A stretch of DNA of 33,575 bases, from positions 9,147 through 42,721 of the forward strand of contig CAZXUD010000001.1 in assembly GCA_964643805.1 (NCBI GenBank), given 5' to 3'. Positions 25,248 to 33,575 of this stretch are shown in pieces. Source of the stretch: an uncultured Candidatus Peribacteria bacterium (lineage in GTDB: Bacteria; Patescibacteriota; Gracilibacteria; Peribacterales; Peribacteraceae). How positions within the stretch are numbered: position 1 is the stretch's first letter; each line of letters starts with the position of its first letter. The notes below the pieces were generated by a model. It saw only the letters and a program-made list of their open reading frames with translations, was not told where the DNA came from and searched no databases. The position numbers and the translations under genes are program-made.

Positions 25248-26837
25248 ATGATGTGGGTCGATCATCTCCTGGAAGAAATTGAAGAGCGTTTCAAAACGCA
25301 GATTGGTAAGAAGGAACCGCTCTTAATTCGTGATGAAAAGACACTTTCGGGACGGGTTCACGTGGGGTCATTGCGAGGTATTGTCATCCATGGACTTATC
25401 GCCCAGGTACTCGACCAAAAAAACATTAAGAATGAATTTAAATTCGAGTTGAATGATTTTGATCCGATGGATGGCTTACCTGTTGATATGGATAAGTCGT
25501 ATCAAAGTCATATGGGAAAATCTTTGTATGAGGTACCCGCTCATCAGTCGGGCGCAGAAAATTATCCGATGGTCTTTGGTAATGAATTAAAGGAAGTTGT
25601 TGCTGATCTTGGATTACCTATCGATTTCTACGCTTTAAGACCGTTATATACGTCTGGAAAATTTAACGACACCATTCGCGACGCGCTCGACAACGCAGTC
25701 CATATTCGAAAAATATATTTGGAAGTGAGTGGTGGCGGTAAACCCGACGACTGGTTCCCCTTTAGTGTTATCTGTGAAAACTGTCGCAAGATTGGCACCA
25801 CACAAGTAACAAGTTGGGACGGAGAAAAGGTGCAATACACGTGCCGAAAAGACATGGTGAAATGGGCTGAAGGATGCGGCCATACTGGCTCTATTAACCC
25901 TTACGATGGCAATGGTAAGTTGCCTTGGAAGGTAGAATGGGCCGCAAAATGGAAAGTCTTAGGCGTCCATATTGAAGTGGCCGGCAAAGACCATAACGCT
26001 GCCGGTGGATCGCGCGAAATTAGTAAGCGAATCTCGGAGGAAATATTTAAGTATCCGGAACCGTTTAATATTCCGTACGAATTTTTCAATATTGGCGGCA
26101 AAAAAATGAGCGCTAGTAAAGGCTTGGGATCTTCTGCAAAAGAGGTGGCAGATTTGCTGCCGCCGACTCTCCTTAAATTATTGATGATTCGAAAACAACC
26201 GAATCAACCGATCGATTTTGATCCACAAGGAAATACCATTCCTACACTTTTTGACGAATACGATCGACTCTCAGACCACTATTTCCGTCGTCACGATGAA
26301 CCCAGTGAAGCATTTGCACGTGTTTTTGAATTAGCGCATATAGATATGTCAAAACAACCAGAAGATTTATGGCAAATGCGCTTTAGTGTCCTCAGTTTTG
26401 TGGTGCAAATGCCACATTTAAATTTGGAAGAAGAGGCAGAAAAGTTGAAAGGTTCCAAACTGACAAAACCAGAAAAGGCAGCGCTCGCCGAGCGTGCTGA
26501 CTACGTCCGTCGTTGGTTAGATGCATATGCAGCACCAGAGTATAAATACGAAATTCTGAAATCAGTTCCATCAGATTTTTCTATTAATGATGTTCAACGC
26601 AAGGCGCTGATTCAATTGAAAGATGCTCTCGAAGAACCAAGCTTAAAATGGGAGGGTCCTGAAATTCACGCCATTATTCACCAAGTAAAAGCTGAGACCG
26701 GTGTGGAGCCTAAAGAACTTTTCCAGCCGCTGTATCGCATGTTTCTTAACCGAACAAGCGGACCTCAAGTTGGTTGGTTCTTGAGTACCTTTGACAGGCA
26801 ATTAGTTCTGGAACGACTGCAAGCTTCTGTTTCATAA
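25248..26837 (+). CDS. lysK: Lysyl-tRNA synthetase, class I
   Basis: Class I LysRS signature: SGRVHVGSLRG (HIGH-equivalent) near the N-terminus, KMSASKG (KMSKS) and a Cys cluster CENCRK...C...CGH. 529 aa, the typical LysRS-1 size. Confidence 0.9.
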   Translation: MMWVDHLLEEIEERFKTQIGKKEPLLIRDEKTLSGRVHVGSLRGIVIHGLIAQVLDQKNIKNEFKFELNDFDPMDGLPVDMDKSYQSHMGKSLYEVPAHQSGAENYPMVFGNELKEVVADLGLPIDFYALRPLYTSGKFNDTIRDALDNAVHIRKIYLEVSGGGKPDDWFPFSVICENCRKIGTTQVTSWDGEKVQYTCRKDMVKWAEGCGHTGSINPYDGNGKLPWKVEWAAKWKVLGVHIEVAGKDHNAAGGSREISKRISEEIFKYPEPFNIPYEFFNIGGKKMSASKGLGSSAKEVADLLPPTLLKLLMIRKQPNQPIDFDPQGNTIPTLFDEYDRLSDHYFRRHDEPSEAFARVFELAHIDMSKQPEDLWQMRFSVLSFVVQMPHLNLEEEAEKLKGSKLTKPEKAALAERADYVRRWLDAYAAPEYKYEILKSVPSDFSINDVQRKALIQLKDALEEPSLKWEGPEIHAIIHQVKAETGVEPKELFQPLYRMFLNRTSGPQVGWFLSTFDRQLVLERLQASVS

Positions 26838-26838
26838 G

Positions 26839-27438
26839 ATGAATACCACTCCTCTCCTCCAACACGCTGAGTATGGTCATCTCTTACCGGCTGCCCATGG
26901 CTTATTAGAAGCTCATGCAGATCAAACCAAGGCTCATTTAATCGCCACTGGAGCCGCGATGGAGGCCTTAGCCAAGCGGTTTAATGGACATTCCGAAACA
27001 TGGAAAGTGGCTGGCATGCTGCACGATTTAGACTGGGATAAATTAGATAAAGATGCCGAAGCTCACTGCGGTAAAACATTGGAAGAGCTGCTGGCATCTG
27101 TGGAAGCTCCTGATGAATTGCTCGCTGATATTCGTGCCCACTATCAGGCAAAATACGGCGCTGAGTATCCGTTAGATACCATGCTCCGTAAGTGCCTTTA
27201 CTGTGTAGATGAATTAACAGGCTTCATTGTTGCTGTAGCACTCGTGCGACCAAGTAAAAAACTATTTGATTTGGAAGTAAAAAGCGTCACAAAGAAATTA
27301 AAAGACAAAAGTTTTGCTGCTCAAGTTGATCGCACGCAAATTCAGCAATGTGAAACAATGCTGGGTATTCCGCTCAATGAATTTATTGAATTGACGTTGG
27401 GCGCTATGAAACCAGTTGCAGCAGAAATGGGACTATAG
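26839..27438 (+). CDS. HD-domain metal-dependent phosphohydrolase
   Basis: H...HD motif (AGMLHDLDWDK) with downstream H/D residues (IRAHY, CVDELTG). Starts 1 nt after the lysK stop. Confidence 0.7.
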   Translation: MNTTPLLQHAEYGHLLPAAHGLLEAHADQTKAHLIATGAAMEALAKRFNGHSETWKVAGMLHDLDWDKLDKDAEAHCGKTLEELLASVEAPDELLADIRAHYQAKYGAEYPLDTMLRKCLYCVDELTGFIVAVALVRPSKKLFDLEVKSVTKKLKDKSFAAQVDRTQIQQCETMLGIPLNEFIELTLGAMKPVAAEMGL

Positions 27439-27442
27439 AGCT

Positions 27443-30427
27443 TTAACTCTTCCTCTTCTTCCGTCTCATTAATCCGAAGCCTGCAGCTGCGCCAGCTGCG
27501 CCAAAGACAATGATTTCTGGTCCAGTACTGCTGAGCGGACTGCCTGATGGTTGATTGAAGGCGCCAACAGGAACGTTGCCACCTGGACCTCCAGCATTGT
27601 TGCCGAAGATAAAGCCGCCATTAGTGCCTTGTAACCATGAAGAAGCGGCACCATGTCCATCGGCTGCGCTGCCTGAAACATAACGACCATTCACCATAAC
27701 TTCTCGTTGGCACAGCCGCGTGCAACCGTCGCCATTAATGTAGTTATGGTCGTCGCATTGCTCACCAGGATCCAACACGCCATCGCCACAGGCACCACGA
27801 GAACAATCTAGCCGACAAGCAGCACCCGGAGCATTGGAATTCCATTCGCCTAAGTCACAGTGCTCCCCAGGATTTTGTAGGCCGTCGCCACAATTCGGCA
27901 GGATGTATCGACCTTGTTCCGAACAAGCGTACGGAGCATTTGTGTTGTTTGCAGCTGGGTCACATTGCTCACCCAAAGCTCGTTGTACAACGCCATCTCC
28001 TAAACTCCCCTGCTCAAAGAAACACGTGGCAGCGCAGCCATCTTGGTCAAAGAAGTTACCGTCGTCACATTCTTCGCCTGCGTTCGTTTGGCCATTGCCG
28101 CAAGTGAAGACACCCAGAACAAGTGACGTTTCTATACGACAGTTATGTGCGCAACCGTCACCAAACAATTGGTTACCGTCGTCGCACTGTTCACCAAAGG
28201 TAAGAATGCGATCACCACAGTACGGTTCTCTACCCGCTTCCAAAATACAAGATGTGCTGCAGCCGTCGTTATTGTTAGCATTTCCGTCGTCACATTGTTC
28301 AATGGCAGAAAGCACGCGGTTGCCACAGTAACCACCGGCACCACCATACCCACCCTGGCCACCTACTCCGCCAATACCACCAATTCCGCCTTGGCCGCCT
28401 ATATTTCCAATGCCTCCTATACCGCCTTGGCCGCCAATTCCTCCTTGGGTACCAGCAACCGTACCACCAGCATTTGTTCCCCCGATTGTTCCTCCAGCAA
28501 GAGTTCCACCATTGGTTCCACTATTGCCACCGCTTTGACCCGCCGTACCACCAACTCCTCCCACCCCACCCTGACCACCCATACCTGCAGTTCCGCCAGT
28601 TGTTCCACTAATACCACCACCAGTATTCCCCGATACACCTCCCCCTTGGCCACTAATTCCGCCTTGGCCGCCCACTCCGCCGATGCCACCTTGGCCGCCG
28701 ATACCTCCACCAGTATCTGGGCTACCAAAACCTTCGATAGTGCATGATGCATTACAACCATCACCCGAGAGTGTGTTGTTGTCGTCACATTGTTCCGGAA
28801 TATCGACAATTCCATCGCCACAGAAAGCAAATCCACCAGGACCACCGGGCCCGCCGCCAATACCACCGATGCCACCTTGCCCACCGATTGCACCAGAAAT
28901 TCCTGCTCCACCGATACCAGCGACACCGCCTTGCGTTCCCCCGATAGTACCAGCCACGGTTCCTCCACCAATGGTTCCACCTGCAAGGGTGCCACCATTT
29001 GTCCCACTGATACCACCAGCTTGACCTGCATTACCACCAATACCGGACGTGCCGCCCTGGGTCCCACCTAGTGTTCCAGAAAACGTACCTCCGATTGTTC
29101 CTCCGATAGTTGTTCCACCATTCGTTCCAGTGTTGCTTCCACCCGTAGTTCCTGAAATAGATCCTCCACCAGTGGTGCCTGCAGTACCTCCATTTGTTCC
29201 GCTGACACTTCCACCAGTTGTGCCAGAAACAGAACCGCCATTTGTACCAGACGTTGAACCCCCCGTTGTTCCAACAGTTCCCCCATTCGTTCCACTCACA
29301 CCTCCACCAGTGGTACCAGAAACAGAACCTCCTCCAGTTGTACCTGCAATAGCGCCAGCGGTTCCCCCGCCAGTATTAGCAGCAGGGTGTGAATCGCCGG
29401 TAGTACCGGCAACACCACCTTGTGTTCCACCAGTTGTAGAGCCTCCTAATTCAGACAAACAATTTGCAGAACAGCCATCACCCGAAGCGCTATTACCATC
29501 ATCACACTGTTCTCCTACCTGCTTAATACCATCTCCGCATATATATAAGGTAGGGCCGCCTCCAGACAATGTCCCTCCACCTCCTGTCGTATTGGTAGAT
29601 CCCGGTTGTTCACTGACACACGTGCTAGAACAACCATCTCCAGATTGATTGTCACCGTCATCACATTGCTCCCCTGGTTGAAGAATGCCATTACCACAAA
29701 TAGTGGCCCCACCACCTCCCGTCGTTCCTCCTGTCGTTCCAGCCGTACCACCGGTAGTACCCGCTGTTGAGCCACCAGTAGTTCCACCCGTTGTACCCGC
29801 CGTACCCCCTGTCGTTCCTCCCGTAGTTCCCCCGGTTGTTCCTGCTATACCTCCGGCTGTTCCGCCTGTTGTGCCTCCCGTTGTACCTGCTGTACCACCT
29901 GTCGTTCCTCCTGTCGTATTTCCACCGGGTGATGAACTTTGACCACCGGGGTTTTGGTTTTGGCAGGTGTTAGAACAATTGTCATTGTTATTGGAGTTAC
30001 CGTCATCACATTGTTCTCCATCTTGTACTATGGCGTTGCCACAACGTGGTCCCATGACACAGGTTTCACAAGCCACCGGCGATCCACAGAAGTTCGTCCA
30101 CCCATTCTGTTGATGCAACGTGCTTTGGTACGATGATTCAAAGAAAGCTAAACCCTGATCGGTCGACATTTGTTCCGTGGCAAACATTGCCTGCAAAAAT
30201 GTATTGAGTTCGGTATGCAAGCCAGCCTCGTCAAATGCGTAGACCTCGTCTAAGCAACAATACACAGATTTTTGGCCAGTTACTGGGTCCGGCGTGACTT
30301 GGTCACACATGCCGACATCCAAACCAATAACGTCACCGCTGAGCACATCACTCTGTAGTAAACCGACAATAACAGCCAGAGCCAGAACTACGAGAACAAC
30401 ACCGGCGTGACGTTTGGCAAAAGCCAT
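27443..30427 (-). CDS. Giant secreted cysteine-rich-repeat protein (10 DUF4215-like repeats, about 420 aa of GGx glycine-rich tracts, C-terminal sorting-signal-like tail)
   Basis: Start at ATG 30427 (MAFAKRHAGVVLVVLALAVIVGLLQS, a signal peptide or anchor). The ORF-track start at 30547 overlaps the upstream gene. Ten repeats of the form CG(D/N)G-x5-(G)E(Q/E)CDDGN-x3-(G)DGC-x3-C. The tail is LSSTGPEIIVFGAAGAAAGFGLMRRKKRKS. Confidence 0.85.
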   Translation of the reverse strand: MAFAKRHAGVVLVVLALAVIVGLLQSDVLSGDVIGLDVGMCDQVTPDPVTGQKSVYCCLDEVYAFDEAGLHTELNTFLQAMFATEQMSTDQGLAFFESSYQSTLHQQNGWTNFCGSPVACETCVMGPRCGNAIVQDGEQCDDGNSNNNDNCSNTCQNQNPGGQSSSPGGNTTGGTTGGTAGTTGGTTGGTAGGIAGTTGGTTGGTTGGTAGTTGGTTGGSTAGTTGGTAGTTGGTTGGGGATICGNGILQPGEQCDDGDNQSGDGCSSTCVSEQPGSTNTTGGGGTLSGGGPTLYICGDGIKQVGEQCDDGNSASGDGCSANCLSELGGSTTGGTQGGVAGTTGDSHPAANTGGGTAGAIAGTTGGGSVSGTTGGGVSGTNGGTVGTTGGSTSGTNGGSVSGTTGGSVSGTNGGTAGTTGGGSISGTTGGSNTGTNGGTTIGGTIGGTFSGTLGGTQGGTSGIGGNAGQAGGISGTNGGTLAGGTIGGGTVAGTIGGTQGGVAGIGGAGISGAIGGQGGIGGIGGGPGGPGGFAFCGDGIVDIPEQCDDNNTLSGDGCNASCTIEGFGSPDTGGGIGGQGGIGGVGGQGGISGQGGGVSGNTGGGISGTTGGTAGMGGQGGVGGVGGTAGQSGGNSGTNGGTLAGGTIGGTNAGGTVAGTQGGIGGQGGIGGIGNIGGQGGIGGIGGVGGQGGYGGAGGYCGNRVLSAIEQCDDGNANNNDGCSTSCILEAGREPYCGDRILTFGEQCDDGNQLFGDGCAHNCRIETSLVLGVFTCGNGQTNAGEECDDGNFFDQDGCAATCFFEQGSLGDGVVQRALGEQCDPAANNTNAPYACSEQGRYILPNCGDGLQNPGEHCDLGEWNSNAPGAACRLDCSRGACGDGVLDPGEQCDDHNYINGDGCTRLCQREVMVNGRYVSGSAADGHGAASSWLQGTNGGFIFGNNAGGPGGNVPVGAFNQPSGSPLSSTGPEIIVFGAAGAAAGFGLMRRKKRKS
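28328..29950 (-). repeat. Degenerate in-frame GGx (Gly/Thr/Ile/Gln/Ser) low-complexity coding tracts
   Basis: Three main tracts: about 29699-29950 (GGTTGGTAGTT...), 28823-29449 (GTTGGSVSGTNGG...GGQGGIGGIGGGPGGPGG) and 28328-28732 (GGIGGQGGIGGVGGQGG...GGYGGAGGY). They are separated by single Cys-rich repeats. The plus strand here is strongly C-rich and G-poor. Confidence 0.9.
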
Positions 30428-30482: not shown

Positions 30483-33400
30483 CTATTTCCTGCGCTTGCG
30501 TCGCATCCAGGCGAAGCCTGCGGCAGCACCGCTTGCCATAATTGCAACTGCTACTGGACCCGTGTCTCCGACTGGTGCACGACCAGCGTTCGTTCCCGTC
30601 AGTTGTGCCAATGGCAAGTTGTATGGCAGCGGCTGTGTATTCGGACCGCCAGGAATTTGGCCGTAAATGCCGGAGACATCCTGAGGCCAGACTGGGTAAC
30701 CATTCACCGTGCCACCTGGTTGTACGGCAGCACCTTGTTCAACCGAACAGATGCGGCTGCAACCGTCGCCTGGCACCAAGTTGCCATCGTCGCATTGCTC
30801 GCCACTGTCCAAGATTGAATCGCCACATCTTGTTCTGGAACAGTCGGTGCGGCAGAGCGAATTTGGCTGGTCAGAATTATCGTTTCCAAGATCACATTCT
30901 TCACCTTCATCCATGCGACCGTTGCCACAGAAGTTAAGGATGTAGCGACAATCATCATTACATTGCAACGGAGCGTTAGGATCCGTTGCTGATGGTTCAC
31001 ATTGCTCACCGAGAGCGTGTTGCACGACGCCATCGCCACAAATACCACGTTCAAGGAAGCAGGTTGCGCCACAGCCATCAAAGTCACGGCGATTGCCGTC
31101 GTCACATTCCTCGCCAGCATCCACGCTACCGTTACCACAGAGTGCGCCGCCAGCAACAATACGCGACTCAATGCGGCAAGAAACACTGCAACCGTCGCCC
31201 GAAACATTGTTACGGTCATCGCACTGTTCGCCCAACGTAATAATACCGTCGCCGCAACGAACAGCAGTGCCCGGCTCTAACACGCAGCTCGCGCTACAGC
31301 CATCGCTTGGCGAAAGATTACCATCGTCACATTGCTCATTAACGTTGAGGACACGGTCGCCACATCGGCCCACACCGTTACCACCTTCTAAGGTACAAGC
31401 GAGGGAACAACCATCGCCTGGCACTTGGTTAGCATCGTCACACTGTTCTGGGCTTTGGAGCAGACCATCGCTGCACAGAGCATTGCGTGTTTCCAATCTG
31501 CAAGCGTTGGTGCAGCCGTCGTTATTTTGATTATTGTGGTCATCACATTGTTCAGCTGCATCCAAACGACCATCACCACAGAAGCGGACTTGGCCACTCG
31601 TTTCACCGCCGGCTCCGCTAATGCTACCGGAAGGTCCGCCAGTTGTTCCCGCATTGGTTCCACCAGGACCACCGGCTGTTGTTCCACCTGTGTCACCATT
31701 CGTACAACCGCTTATTTGGCGGTGTGAACAAGCGCCAGTGGTACAGACATCTTCTGTACATGAGTTATTGTCGTTACAAGAACTATTACTTGTACATGCG
31801 GAGGCTGTCTGACACTGATCGCTGCAACTGACACTTTGTGCACGATCGTACGAACAGGTGTACGTGACACCATTACACTGTGCATCGCTGGTACACAGAA
31901 TGCCGTTTGGATCCGCACCACAGCGGTTGACCGCTGTGCCTGGAATGCGCTCACACTTGCGACAATCGGCATCGGTGCGACAATCCTTATTTGGAAGGTG
32001 GCTGCAAGAACTACCGTTATCGCAAAGCTCTTTCAAGCTTGCACTTGGAGCACCATTTCTGCCAACGCGCACGGCGAGTGTCTTGTCTGTTTTCCCATCG
32101 CCGCAGTACTCAAATAGACACGTCTTGGAGCAGCCATCAAAGTCAGCGCTATTACTGTCATCGCACTCTTCCACCCCTTCTACAACACCGTTGCCACAAA
32201 CGCTATTTTGAGCAGTGCAGTTATTGGAACAGTTGACGTCATCTTGGGTGTTGTAAGCACAAGCGTAAGTGGTCGTGGCACAGTCTGCATTGGTTGTGCA
32301 GGAGATTCCGTTTGGATCACCAGCACACCTCTTTATATTATTGCTAACATTTCCAGAATTGTTAGCCATTGGTAAGCACACGCGACAATCAGCATTCGTG
32401 CGGCAATCAAAGTTCTGTTTGAGTTGGCCTCCAATCACACAAACGCTGCCGTTATCACAAGCTTCGCTCCGTGTGACTTGAATAGCACCATCACCACAGA
32501 ATTCATTTTGGCAGCCTTTTGTACAGCCATCACCATCGGCACTATTACTGTCATCACATTCCTCTGGACCCTCCTGCAGACCGTCGCCACAAACTGGGTT
32601 ACACGTGGTGTCGGTTGGATTACAAGGTGCAGCGCCATGCAAACAGTTCACACATGTTGCATCTTGTGCCTGGTCGTACACACAGCTGTAGGACTCATTT
32701 GTACACTCGGTATCTGCCGTACAAAGTTTGCCATTGGGGTCACCGCCACAGCGGCTGGTGCTTGTGCCCGAAATGCGCGTGCACTTGCGGCAATCGGCAT
32801 TGTCACGGCAGCTCAAGTTTGCATTCTGACTACAGACGTTACCGTTATCACAGACCTCACCATTCAAGGTCGATTGAATGACGGCATCACCACAGAATTC
32901 ATTGAGACACGTCTTGGAACAACCATCGCCATCAGCATTATTACCATCATCGCATTTCTCCAGACCATCAATAATGTTGTTACCACAGAGTGAACTACCA
33001 CCCAGCTGGAGACAGCCACTCGTACACTGAGTGCTTGCCTGAACATTGTATTCACACGTGTAGGTTGTATCGGTGCAGTCCGCTGCGGTGCTACATAACT
33101 TACCATTTGGATCACCCGCGCAACGTTTTGCGCTGGTGCCACTAATTGCTATACAAGTACGGCAGTCGGCATTCGTGCGGCAGTCAAAGTTCTGGTTTAG
33201 TTGCCCACCAATGCGACAGACGCTGCCGTTATCACACTGTTCCGTGAGAGCAGCTTGAATAGAACCATCACCACAGAATTCATTCTTACAAGTCTTGCTG
33301 CAGCCATCTTGGTCGGCACTGTTGTTGTCGTCACATTCTTCCGTGGCTTCCTGAATACCATTTCCACAGAGGTTAACGCACAGACCATCATTGCCACAGA

Positions 33401-33575
33401 CTCCACTTGGACAATCGCTGTCTTCTTCACATTCAATGACACACTGGTTGCTGCAGCCATCACCAGAGGCGGTATTACCGTCATCACATCCTTCTGTACC
33501 CTCGCGCGTGCCGTTGCCACAGAGTGGGTTACAGCTAGCTTCGGTTGGGTCACATGGTGCTACCTCGCGATGACA
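30483..33575 (-). CDS. Giant cysteine-rich-repeat surface protein, paralogue of the downstream gene; 5' end beyond the window (at least 1030 aa)
   Basis: The ORF-track start at 32867 is an internal TTG (Leu). Hand translation of the same frame stays open with the same Cys-rich repeat pattern from 32868 to 33575 (...[38 protein letters not shown]...). The tail is [29 protein letters not shown]. Confidence 0.85.
   Translation of the reverse strand, partial: [1030 protein letters not shown]
31581..33368 (-). repeat. Four tandem ~127-132-aa (~390 nt) composite Cys-rich coding repeats
   Basis: Units start at 33368, 32987, 32591 and 32198. Each unit comprises a DUF4215-like repeat, EFCGD(G)xxQ, CDNGSxC, DCRT(N/D)ADCRxC, RC(A/G)GDPNGxxC and (T/S)YxCxY. 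They are diverged at the DNA level. Confidence 0.8.

Follow-up and report, generated by a model that had tools for sequence, protein, structure and literature searches.

A C-terminal tail conserved across one family of Peribacteria is probably a degenerate LPXTG-type sorting signal

A stretch of 33,575 nucleotides from an uncultured Candidatus Peribacteria bacterium (the window; positions 9147-42721 of contig C1 in genome G000) was analyzed together with the genomes of its relatives. The window runs to the end of the 42.7-kb contig and encodes two large, neighboring Cys-rich proteins (genes 1 and 2) that share a C-terminal tail, in which a T-G-P motif is followed by a hydrophobic helix and a patch of Arg and Lys. 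This tail is a family-wide signal and is not private to the two paralogues. Comparison of sequences indicates that it is probably a degenerate LPXTG-type sortase cell-wall sorting signal in one family of the candidate phyla radiation (CPR) that has Peribacteraceae/Peregrinibacteria as its named relatives. The genome of 918 kb is in 120 contigs, is 98% complete, and has a G+C content of 48%.

The full C-terminal ends of the gene 1 and gene 2 products are PLSSTGPEIIVFGAAGAAAGFGLMRRKKRKS and PVGDTGPVAVAIMASGAAAGFAWMRRKRRK, respectively, and 16 of 27 positions are identical between them when counted from (S/D)TGP on. A hidden Markov model (HMM) constructed from 40 tails, all from other genomes, was searched against the 11,666 six-frame open reading frames (ORFs) of G000. 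Its best two matches lie at the very C-terminal ends of gene 2 (57.5 bits, E = 4e-16) and gene 1 (47.5 bits, E = 5e-13); a match on contig C116 comes next (E = 0.011), with the rest at E > 1. The likeness of the two tails exceeds chance.

Distribution was assessed in a sample of 41 genomes, comprising 25 genera of the same GTDB family (one genome each; its named relatives are Peribacteraceae/Peregrinibacteria) and 16 other families of the class. Searched with a profile built from nine tails, 24 of the 25 family genera gave 1-6 strong matches in each genome, the best at E = 1e-16. The tail was at the exact C-terminus in those strong matches whose ends were read out, and the frames that carry it are mostly 200-7015 amino acids long, with a few short ones cut by contig ends. 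None of the 16 other families has the tail at E < 1e-3, and the matches found there are marginal (E 0.005-0.06). Across the phylum, 401 genomes from 320 genera were sampled; the tail is present in 11 of 12 family genomes, with one marginal match elsewhere in the class and no match in the 376 genomes outside the class. Carriers are mostly Cys-rich with DUF4215-type repeats, and a few lack such repeats. When the C-terminal 155 residues of gene 1 were used as a query, DUF4215 repeats from Myxococcota dominated the results; the tail was present in 6 of 120 hits, one of them named Candidatus Peribacteraceae.

A position profile was constructed from 49 distinct tails and numbered from the invariant Gly (position 0). 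Gly at position 0, Pro at +1, and Gly at +10 occur in all 49, and Gly at +14 occurs in 48. The residue at -1 is Thr in 39 tails and Ser in seven (94% Thr/Ser). The segment from +1 to +18 has a fixed length, with Ala at +8, +11, and +12 in 43, 45, and 44 tails and Trp at +17 in 35, and is followed by Arg at +19 and +20 in 47 and 45. Upstream of the motif, P-[AV]-G-x is frequent, not universal. The initial annotation, made from the window alone, had described on both proteins an x-(S/D)-T-G-P motif, an 18-residue helix, and an Arg/Lys end, and had likened this tripartite layout to C-terminal sorting signals. Its coordinates and sequences agree with translation and with the leave-out HMM, and both the layout and the same 18 positions between G-P and RR recur in 49 of 49 tails. 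It had also suggested a profile search of related genomes, with restriction of the tail to two paralogues and lack of an enzyme as grounds for a simple anchor; further carriers were found in 24 of 25 family genera, and candidate enzymes exist.

The motif of the tail grades into LPX(T/S)G-P. The match on contig C116 is a third carrier, and orthologues of this protein occur in 23 of the 25 family genomes and in outgroups, where they end in LPQTG, LPESG, LPDTG, LPHTG, LPNSG, LPGSG, LTQTGP, LTSSGP, LTDSGP, LSSSG, LSTTG, LSRTG, LAQTG, LAQSG, or LNSSGP. The helices of many of these orthologues end in ...AG-W-R-[KR]-M-[RK], which is reminiscent of the Cys-rich carriers, and several are significant with the profile of Cys-rich carriers, at up to 28 bits. 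Proteins from other families of the class have LPKTGP, LPATGP, LPKSGP, LPSSGP, LPETGP, LAETGP, or TPDSGP, in each case ahead of a helix and a basic tail. In view of the LPX(T/S)G-P signals of other families, the Pro after Gly seems to extend the LPXTG motif throughout the class. The T-G-P of the tail is probably the retained half of this class-wide motif, because the C116 orthologues and the sister families carry LPX(T/S)G forms.

Pro directly follows the Gly of sortase signals in the sister families that were sampled for this feature, seven of the sixteen (loci L128, L129, L138, and L254-L258). The family also retains canonical LPxTG substrates with ordinary helices. Three small proteins of G000 have more canonical signals of this kind (Table 1), and with these three further signal-bearing proteins there are therefore at least six candidate substrates for three sortases.

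Curated models score the tail close to or below their cut-offs. The nearest is LPXTG_anchor TIGR01167 (cut-off 15.9 bits), which scores the tail of gene 1 at 15.5 bits when 59 residues are supplied and 16.5 bits when 40 are supplied, and that of gene 2 at 13.9-15.3 bits, under the cut-off; neither whole protein produces a hit. Over the family, 24 of 42 tails match this model at E ≤ 1, a few of them above the cut-off (16.5-17.4 bits). Genome-wide scans with TIGR01167 were used solely as a pointer to C-termini, which were then read directly. None of the PEP-CTERM, MYXO-CTERM, IPTL, NPXTG, and GVDTG models reaches its own cut-off on the tails. PEP_CTERM scores 15.4 bits at best versus a cut-off of 16, and the tail has neither a PEP nor a PGF motif; on some tails, GC_trans_RRR TIGR03382 reaches 14.1-15.7 bits versus 15.85, with TIGR03901 also under its cut-off; and Rumino_NPXTG matches 6 of 42 tails weakly (15-16 bits versus 23.5). 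GVDTG_CTERM (NF058571) was rejected as the model of the tail, with best scores of about 15-18 bits versus a cut-off of 29. Run singly on the tails of both window genes and nine relatives, it aligned to the helix part only or did not match, and it was above the cut-off in none of the 41 genomes, G000 among them. In place of the pentapeptide L-P-x-T-G, gene 1 has LSSTG and gene 2 has VGDTG. Motifs read directly and these scores thus bear out the earlier description of the tail as not canonical LPXTG, PEP, PGF, GlyGly, or MYXO-CTERM, and the closest approach to a match with an existing model is a set of TIGR01167 scores that lie around 15.9 bits.

Sortases (PF04203) were found in all 41 genomes, with at least two in each family genome and one in most other families. 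The three in G000 (74.8-81.6 bits) each have the His (GHSS), Cys (TC), and Arg residues and, judged by these, are catalytically intact. All three pass the generic sortase_fam model TIGR01076 (42-55 bits versus a cut-off of 39.35), and none passes the models for classes A-F (NF033745-NF033748 and related; 16-55 bits versus cut-offs of 140-166). Assignment to class E fails (42-49 bits versus 160), and the enzymes are distantly related to solved sortases of classes C, D, and E.

A phylogenetic tree of 84 sortase domains resolved four clades. Clade 1 is class-wide (24 of 25 family genomes, 15 of 16 others). Clade 2, in which a signal peptide and SLH domains are fused to the sortase domain, is present in 25 of 25 family genomes and 1 of 16 others. 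Clade 3 consists of small proteins from about 8 of the 25 family genomes, and clade 4 of sporadic, divergent, small proteins that are class F-like by motif alone. The SLH-sortase of G000 and its relatives (L089-L123, L144-L223) have two SLH domains and a C-terminal sortase domain. In named genome records, 172 stretches encode relatives of this enzyme, and nearly all of the best 80 are labelled Peribacteria or Peregrinibacteria. The distribution of the SLH-fused clade nearly mirrors that of the tail, which is only a lead. Candidate enzymes for the tail are the sortases of clade 1 and of the SLH-fused clade 2, found in 24-25 of the 25 family genomes, and a division of labour between the two is plausible. 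The clade 3 type was rejected as the required enzyme, being in about 8 of 25 family genomes versus 24 with the tail.

Enzymes of other C-terminal sorting systems were searched for in G000 and its 40 relatives. Exosortase/archaeosortase (TIGR04178) was not found in G000 or in 21 of the 25 family genomes, rhomboid (PF01694) was not found in G000 or in 23 (present in two), and CPBP (PF02517) was not found in G000 or in 16 (present in nine). Exosortase/archaeosortase, rhombosortase, and CPBP/myxosortase were rejected as cognate enzymes, none being present in G000 or in most carrier genomes. TIGR04178 is above its cut-off in four of the 25 Peribacteraceae, and these exosortase/archaeosortase-family genes therefore represent a second, sporadic sorting system in the family.

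Under the sortase reading, carriers would be exported by Sec through an N-terminal signal peptide (the N-terminus of gene 1, MAFAKRHAGVVLVVLALAVIVGLLQ, resembles one), and the C-terminal helix with its Arg/Lys stop-transfer patch would retain the protein in the membrane. A sortase would then cut between the Thr (sometimes Ser) and the Gly of x-x-x-T-G-P and transfer the protein onto peptidoglycan, so that the Cys-rich repeat protein would be shown on the cell surface. Recognition may extend to the membrane segment, given the unusually conserved helix with its invariant G-x3-G and a Trp preceding RR. We infer the cleavage, its site, the acceptor, and the acting sortase from these comparisons.

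Several observations weigh against this reading. Among the 49 tails, conservation does not extend to the L and P of LPXTG: V, A, L, T, or Q stands at the L position and mostly G or T at the P position, and no characterised sortase is known to require just T-G. Gly at +10 and +14 and Ala at +8, +11, and +12 (each Ala in about 90%) make the helix conserved far beyond that of ordinary LPXTG signals, a pattern seen more typically in signals that intramembrane enzymes read. TIGR01167 is marginal on the tails and produces noise matches at E ≤ 1 in 14 of 14 control genomes. The SLH-sortase seems to lack a membrane anchor, having just a signal peptide that looks cleavable. One family genome (G002) encodes the two family sortases and yet has no strong tail. 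The tail and the SLH-fused clade each arose once, so that the phyletic match is a single, non-independent event and any family-specific gene would correlate equally. All-against-all clustering of ORFs from 20 carrier loci identified no conserved neighbor other than further carriers, and in none of 80 named genomes (1.28 Mb) is a tail within 10 kb on either side of the SLH-sortase.

Other tripartite C-termini were likewise not found within 10 kb of the SLH-sortase in the 80 named genomes, and apparent proximities of 11-25 kb between tail and SLH-sortase in four genomes are at about the chance level for 1.2-Mb genomes. The one physical linkage seen is a small clade 3 sortase that directly adjoins two carriers (G014:C37). 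A bolder proposal is that the tail and the secreted SLH-fused sortase form a new enzyme-substrate pair, in which the enzyme would sit on a wall polymer and not on the membrane, would read (T/S)-G-P and the GxxxG helix instead of L-P-x-T-G, and would be dedicated to displaying giant Cys-rich adhesin-like proteins. We regard this pairing as a tentative possibility and rather doubtful.

An unlikely alternative, which accounts for several features, is that the tail anchors the protein in the membrane at its C-terminus without being cleaved off. The carriers would be type I membrane proteins, the GxxxG helix would serve packing (oligomerisation or partner docking), and T-G-P would cap the helix. 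GxxxG is a classic helix-packing motif, and the very strong conservation of the helix, the fixed spacing, and the near-invariant GAAAG core of the 49 tails would suit this role, as would the variability of the upstream "LP" positions and the lack of an enzyme gene linked to carriers in the 20 carrier loci and 80 SLH-sortase genomes. However, the invariant G-P and the Thr/Ser before it lie outside the helix and are placed as in the LPX(T/S)G-P of sister families and C116 orthologues, the cytoplasmic part is a short Arg/Lys patch like that of sorting signals, and every carrier genome has sortases.

The initial annotation had suggested that the tail may define a distinct sorting class with an unidentified processing enzyme that the window does not encode. 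No such enzyme is encoded within the window, where the neighbors of the two genes are class I lysyl-tRNA synthetase and ribosomal proteins, and the genome search that it had suggested returned three PF04203 sortases and no exosortase/archaeosortase or rhomboid. By analogy with the exosortase, archaeosortase, rhombosortase, and myxosortase systems, the tail would be read by a family-specific intramembrane enzyme. A short motif, a highly conserved helix, and RR are also found in PEP-, PGF-, and GlyGly-CTERM, the PEP_CTERM and MYXO-CTERM models come near threshold on many tails, and the distribution is confined to one family. We nevertheless give such a class a low probability and do not retain it as the leading reading: the known enzyme families of this kind are missing from G000 and most carrier genomes, a conserved membrane-protein neighbor was not found in the 20 carrier loci, three intact sortases are present, and the motif is continuous with LPXTG-type signals.

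In Myxococcota, TIGR02232 repeats usually come with a MYXO-CTERM signal, for which the processing enzyme is a myxosortase of the CPBP type. Descent of the tail from this signal as a Cys-less offshoot would fit the identical repeat family, the TIGR03382 scores near cut-off on some tails, and the myxobacterial homologues that end in ...GGGCS..LLGLLALRRRKR, but it is very improbable. We rejected it on the grounds that the motif has no Cys (0 of 49 tails) and G000 no CPBP protease; the protease is missing also from 16 of 25 family genomes, and every score is under its cut-off.

TIGR02232/PF13948 (DUF4215) repeats, which are Cys-rich and acidic, make up both window proteins. The product of gene 1, a putatively secreted protein, has nine of them together with extended Gly-rich tracts (29% Gly) and the C-terminal tail; that of gene 2 has 13-16 repeats and the tail. 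Tandem arrays of 3-5 tail genes with near-identical tails occur in some relatives (Table 1), and in one array the tail TQTQTGPGLVILIATGAAAGIGYVRRR is repeated five times. These near-identical tails suggest recent duplication or gene conversion of 3' ends. A protein O-mannosyltransferase (PF02366 and PF16192) is encoded a few kb from tail-bearing Cys-rich genes in three genomes, which hints that the surface proteins are O-glycosylated.

Table 1. Locations of the tail-bearing genes, sortases, and other features (window positions for the first six rows; genome, contig, or locus positions for the others)
Feature	Location	Strand	Description
Gene 1	27443..30427	-	994 amino acids from ATG 30427; translation and domain scan
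Gene 1 tail	27443..27538	-	PLSSTGP, 18-residue Ala/Gly helix EIIVFGAAGAAAGFGLM, RRKKRKS, stop codon
Gene 2	30483..33575	-	>1030 amino acids; 5' end cut off by the end of contig C1
Gene 2 tail	30483..30575	-	PVGDTGP, 18-residue helix VAVAIMASGAAAGFAWM, RRKRRK, stop codon
Class I lysyl-tRNA synthetase gene and the ORF after it	25248-27438	+	PF01921 (synthetase); convergent with gene 1
ORF after the lysyl-tRNA synthetase gene	26839-27438		199 amino acids; no Pfam match; ends 4 bases from the gene 1 stop codon
Third carrier, G000	C116:731-1984		417 amino acids, secreted, without DUF4215 repeats; ends LTSSGP: PLTSSGPGAIMLAITALGGSLGWLKTRKAF
Sortase, G000	C36:1867-3084		Clade 1; long N-terminal extension
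Sortase, G000	C14:10657-11940		Clade 2; SLH-sortase
Sortase, G000	C32:5148-5978		Clade 3
Small protein with more canonical signal, G000	C11:5279-6187		QPQTGP; ordinary helix
Small protein with more canonical signal, G000	C56:197-1105		LPHSG; ordinary helix
Small protein with more canonical signal, G000	C80:2996-3571		LPESG; ordinary helix
Tandem array of tail genes	G004:C22:160991-174501 (L024)		
Tandem array of tail genes	G010:C2:48529-68397		
Tandem array of tail genes	G013:C5:41010-48641		
Exosortase/archaeosortase family	G001:C1:405062-405334		TIGR04178
Exosortase/archaeosortase family	G002:C16:233-511		TIGR04178
Exosortase/archaeosortase family	G008:C105:1368-1649		TIGR04178
Exosortase/archaeosortase family	G023:C5:40528-40803		TIGR04178
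Protein O-mannosyltransferase	L038:8288-9847 (G005)		PF02366 and PF16192
Protein O-mannosyltransferase	L042 (G007)		PF02366 and PF16192
Protein O-mannosyltransferase	L031 (G023)		PF02366 and PF16192

Passages on Candidatus Peribacter riflensis describe large cysteine-rich extracellular proteins with weak similarity to Cys-rich repeat proteins of Myxococcus and mention "a sortase A" in the genome (Anantharaman et al. 2016, PMC4736985). These proteins are of the same type as the present carriers and come from the same group of organisms. The terms "LPXTG" and "cell wall anchor" do not occur in the main text of that article, and its sortase passages draw no link to the Cys-rich proteins. Peribacteraceae are uncultured, ultra-small bacteria with a presumed life on the surface of other cells, and their large Cys-rich surface proteins are prime candidates for the attachment (PMC4736985). 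Sortases have been reported in more than half of CPR genomes (PMC6744442), and a paper on CPR protein families says on this subject only that sortases are common. No description of the tail was found among curated models or in the literature on GVDTG, CPR sortase signals, and LPXTG in Patescibacteria.

The finding is real, lineage-wide, and incremental. The tail is a probable sortase-signal variant, unusual in its conserved helix, and the SLH-fused sortase is a candidate for its dedicated enzyme; we infer the processing. One recognisable anchoring tag allows a simple listing of the surface proteome of this lineage, at 1-6 proteins per genome, and links the Cys-rich surface proteins to the sortases that are widespread in CPR. 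For sortase biology, the lineage provides a natural example of a signal that no longer has the LP of LPXTG and in which conservation has shifted to the membrane helix. Curated models lie right at threshold and carriers are therefore inconsistently labelled, an annotation problem that a dedicated tail model would mend.

Compared with known systems, GVDTG_CTERM (NF058571) has a name that resembles the common VGDTG motif and a helix part that aligns, whereas the match is confined to model positions 24-43, the helix, at 15 bits versus a cut-off of 29. MYXO-CTERM (TIGR03382, TIGR03901) shares the Cys-rich acidic repeat cargo, the tripartite tail, and an RRR end, and differs in that the Peribacteraceae motif has no Cys and CPBP-type proteases are missing from G000. 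Variant sortase signals with dedicated enzymes include LAXTG for class E sortases of Actinobacteria and NPXTG of ruminococci (NF033846). These are precedents for a lineage-specific relaxation of the first two positions, and LAXTG has counterparts in the LAQTG and LAQSG of C116 orthologues and the LAETGP of a sister family, but each is a defined five-residue motif and only (T/S)-G-P is kept in the Peribacteraceae tail. Unlike LPXTG signals, the tail lacks the Leu and Pro (LSSTG, VGDTG; commonly P-[AV]-G-x-T-G), has an invariant Pro after the Gly, and has a helix of fixed length with an almost invariant A-x-G-A-A-A-G-[WYF]-[AG]-W, and the G000 sortases belong to none of the NCBIfam classes A-F. 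It shares with LPXTG and its sortases (TIGR01167; PF00746, PF04203) the C-terminal place, the T-G of the scissile site, the hydrophobic segment followed by a basic tail, and the N-terminal signal peptide.

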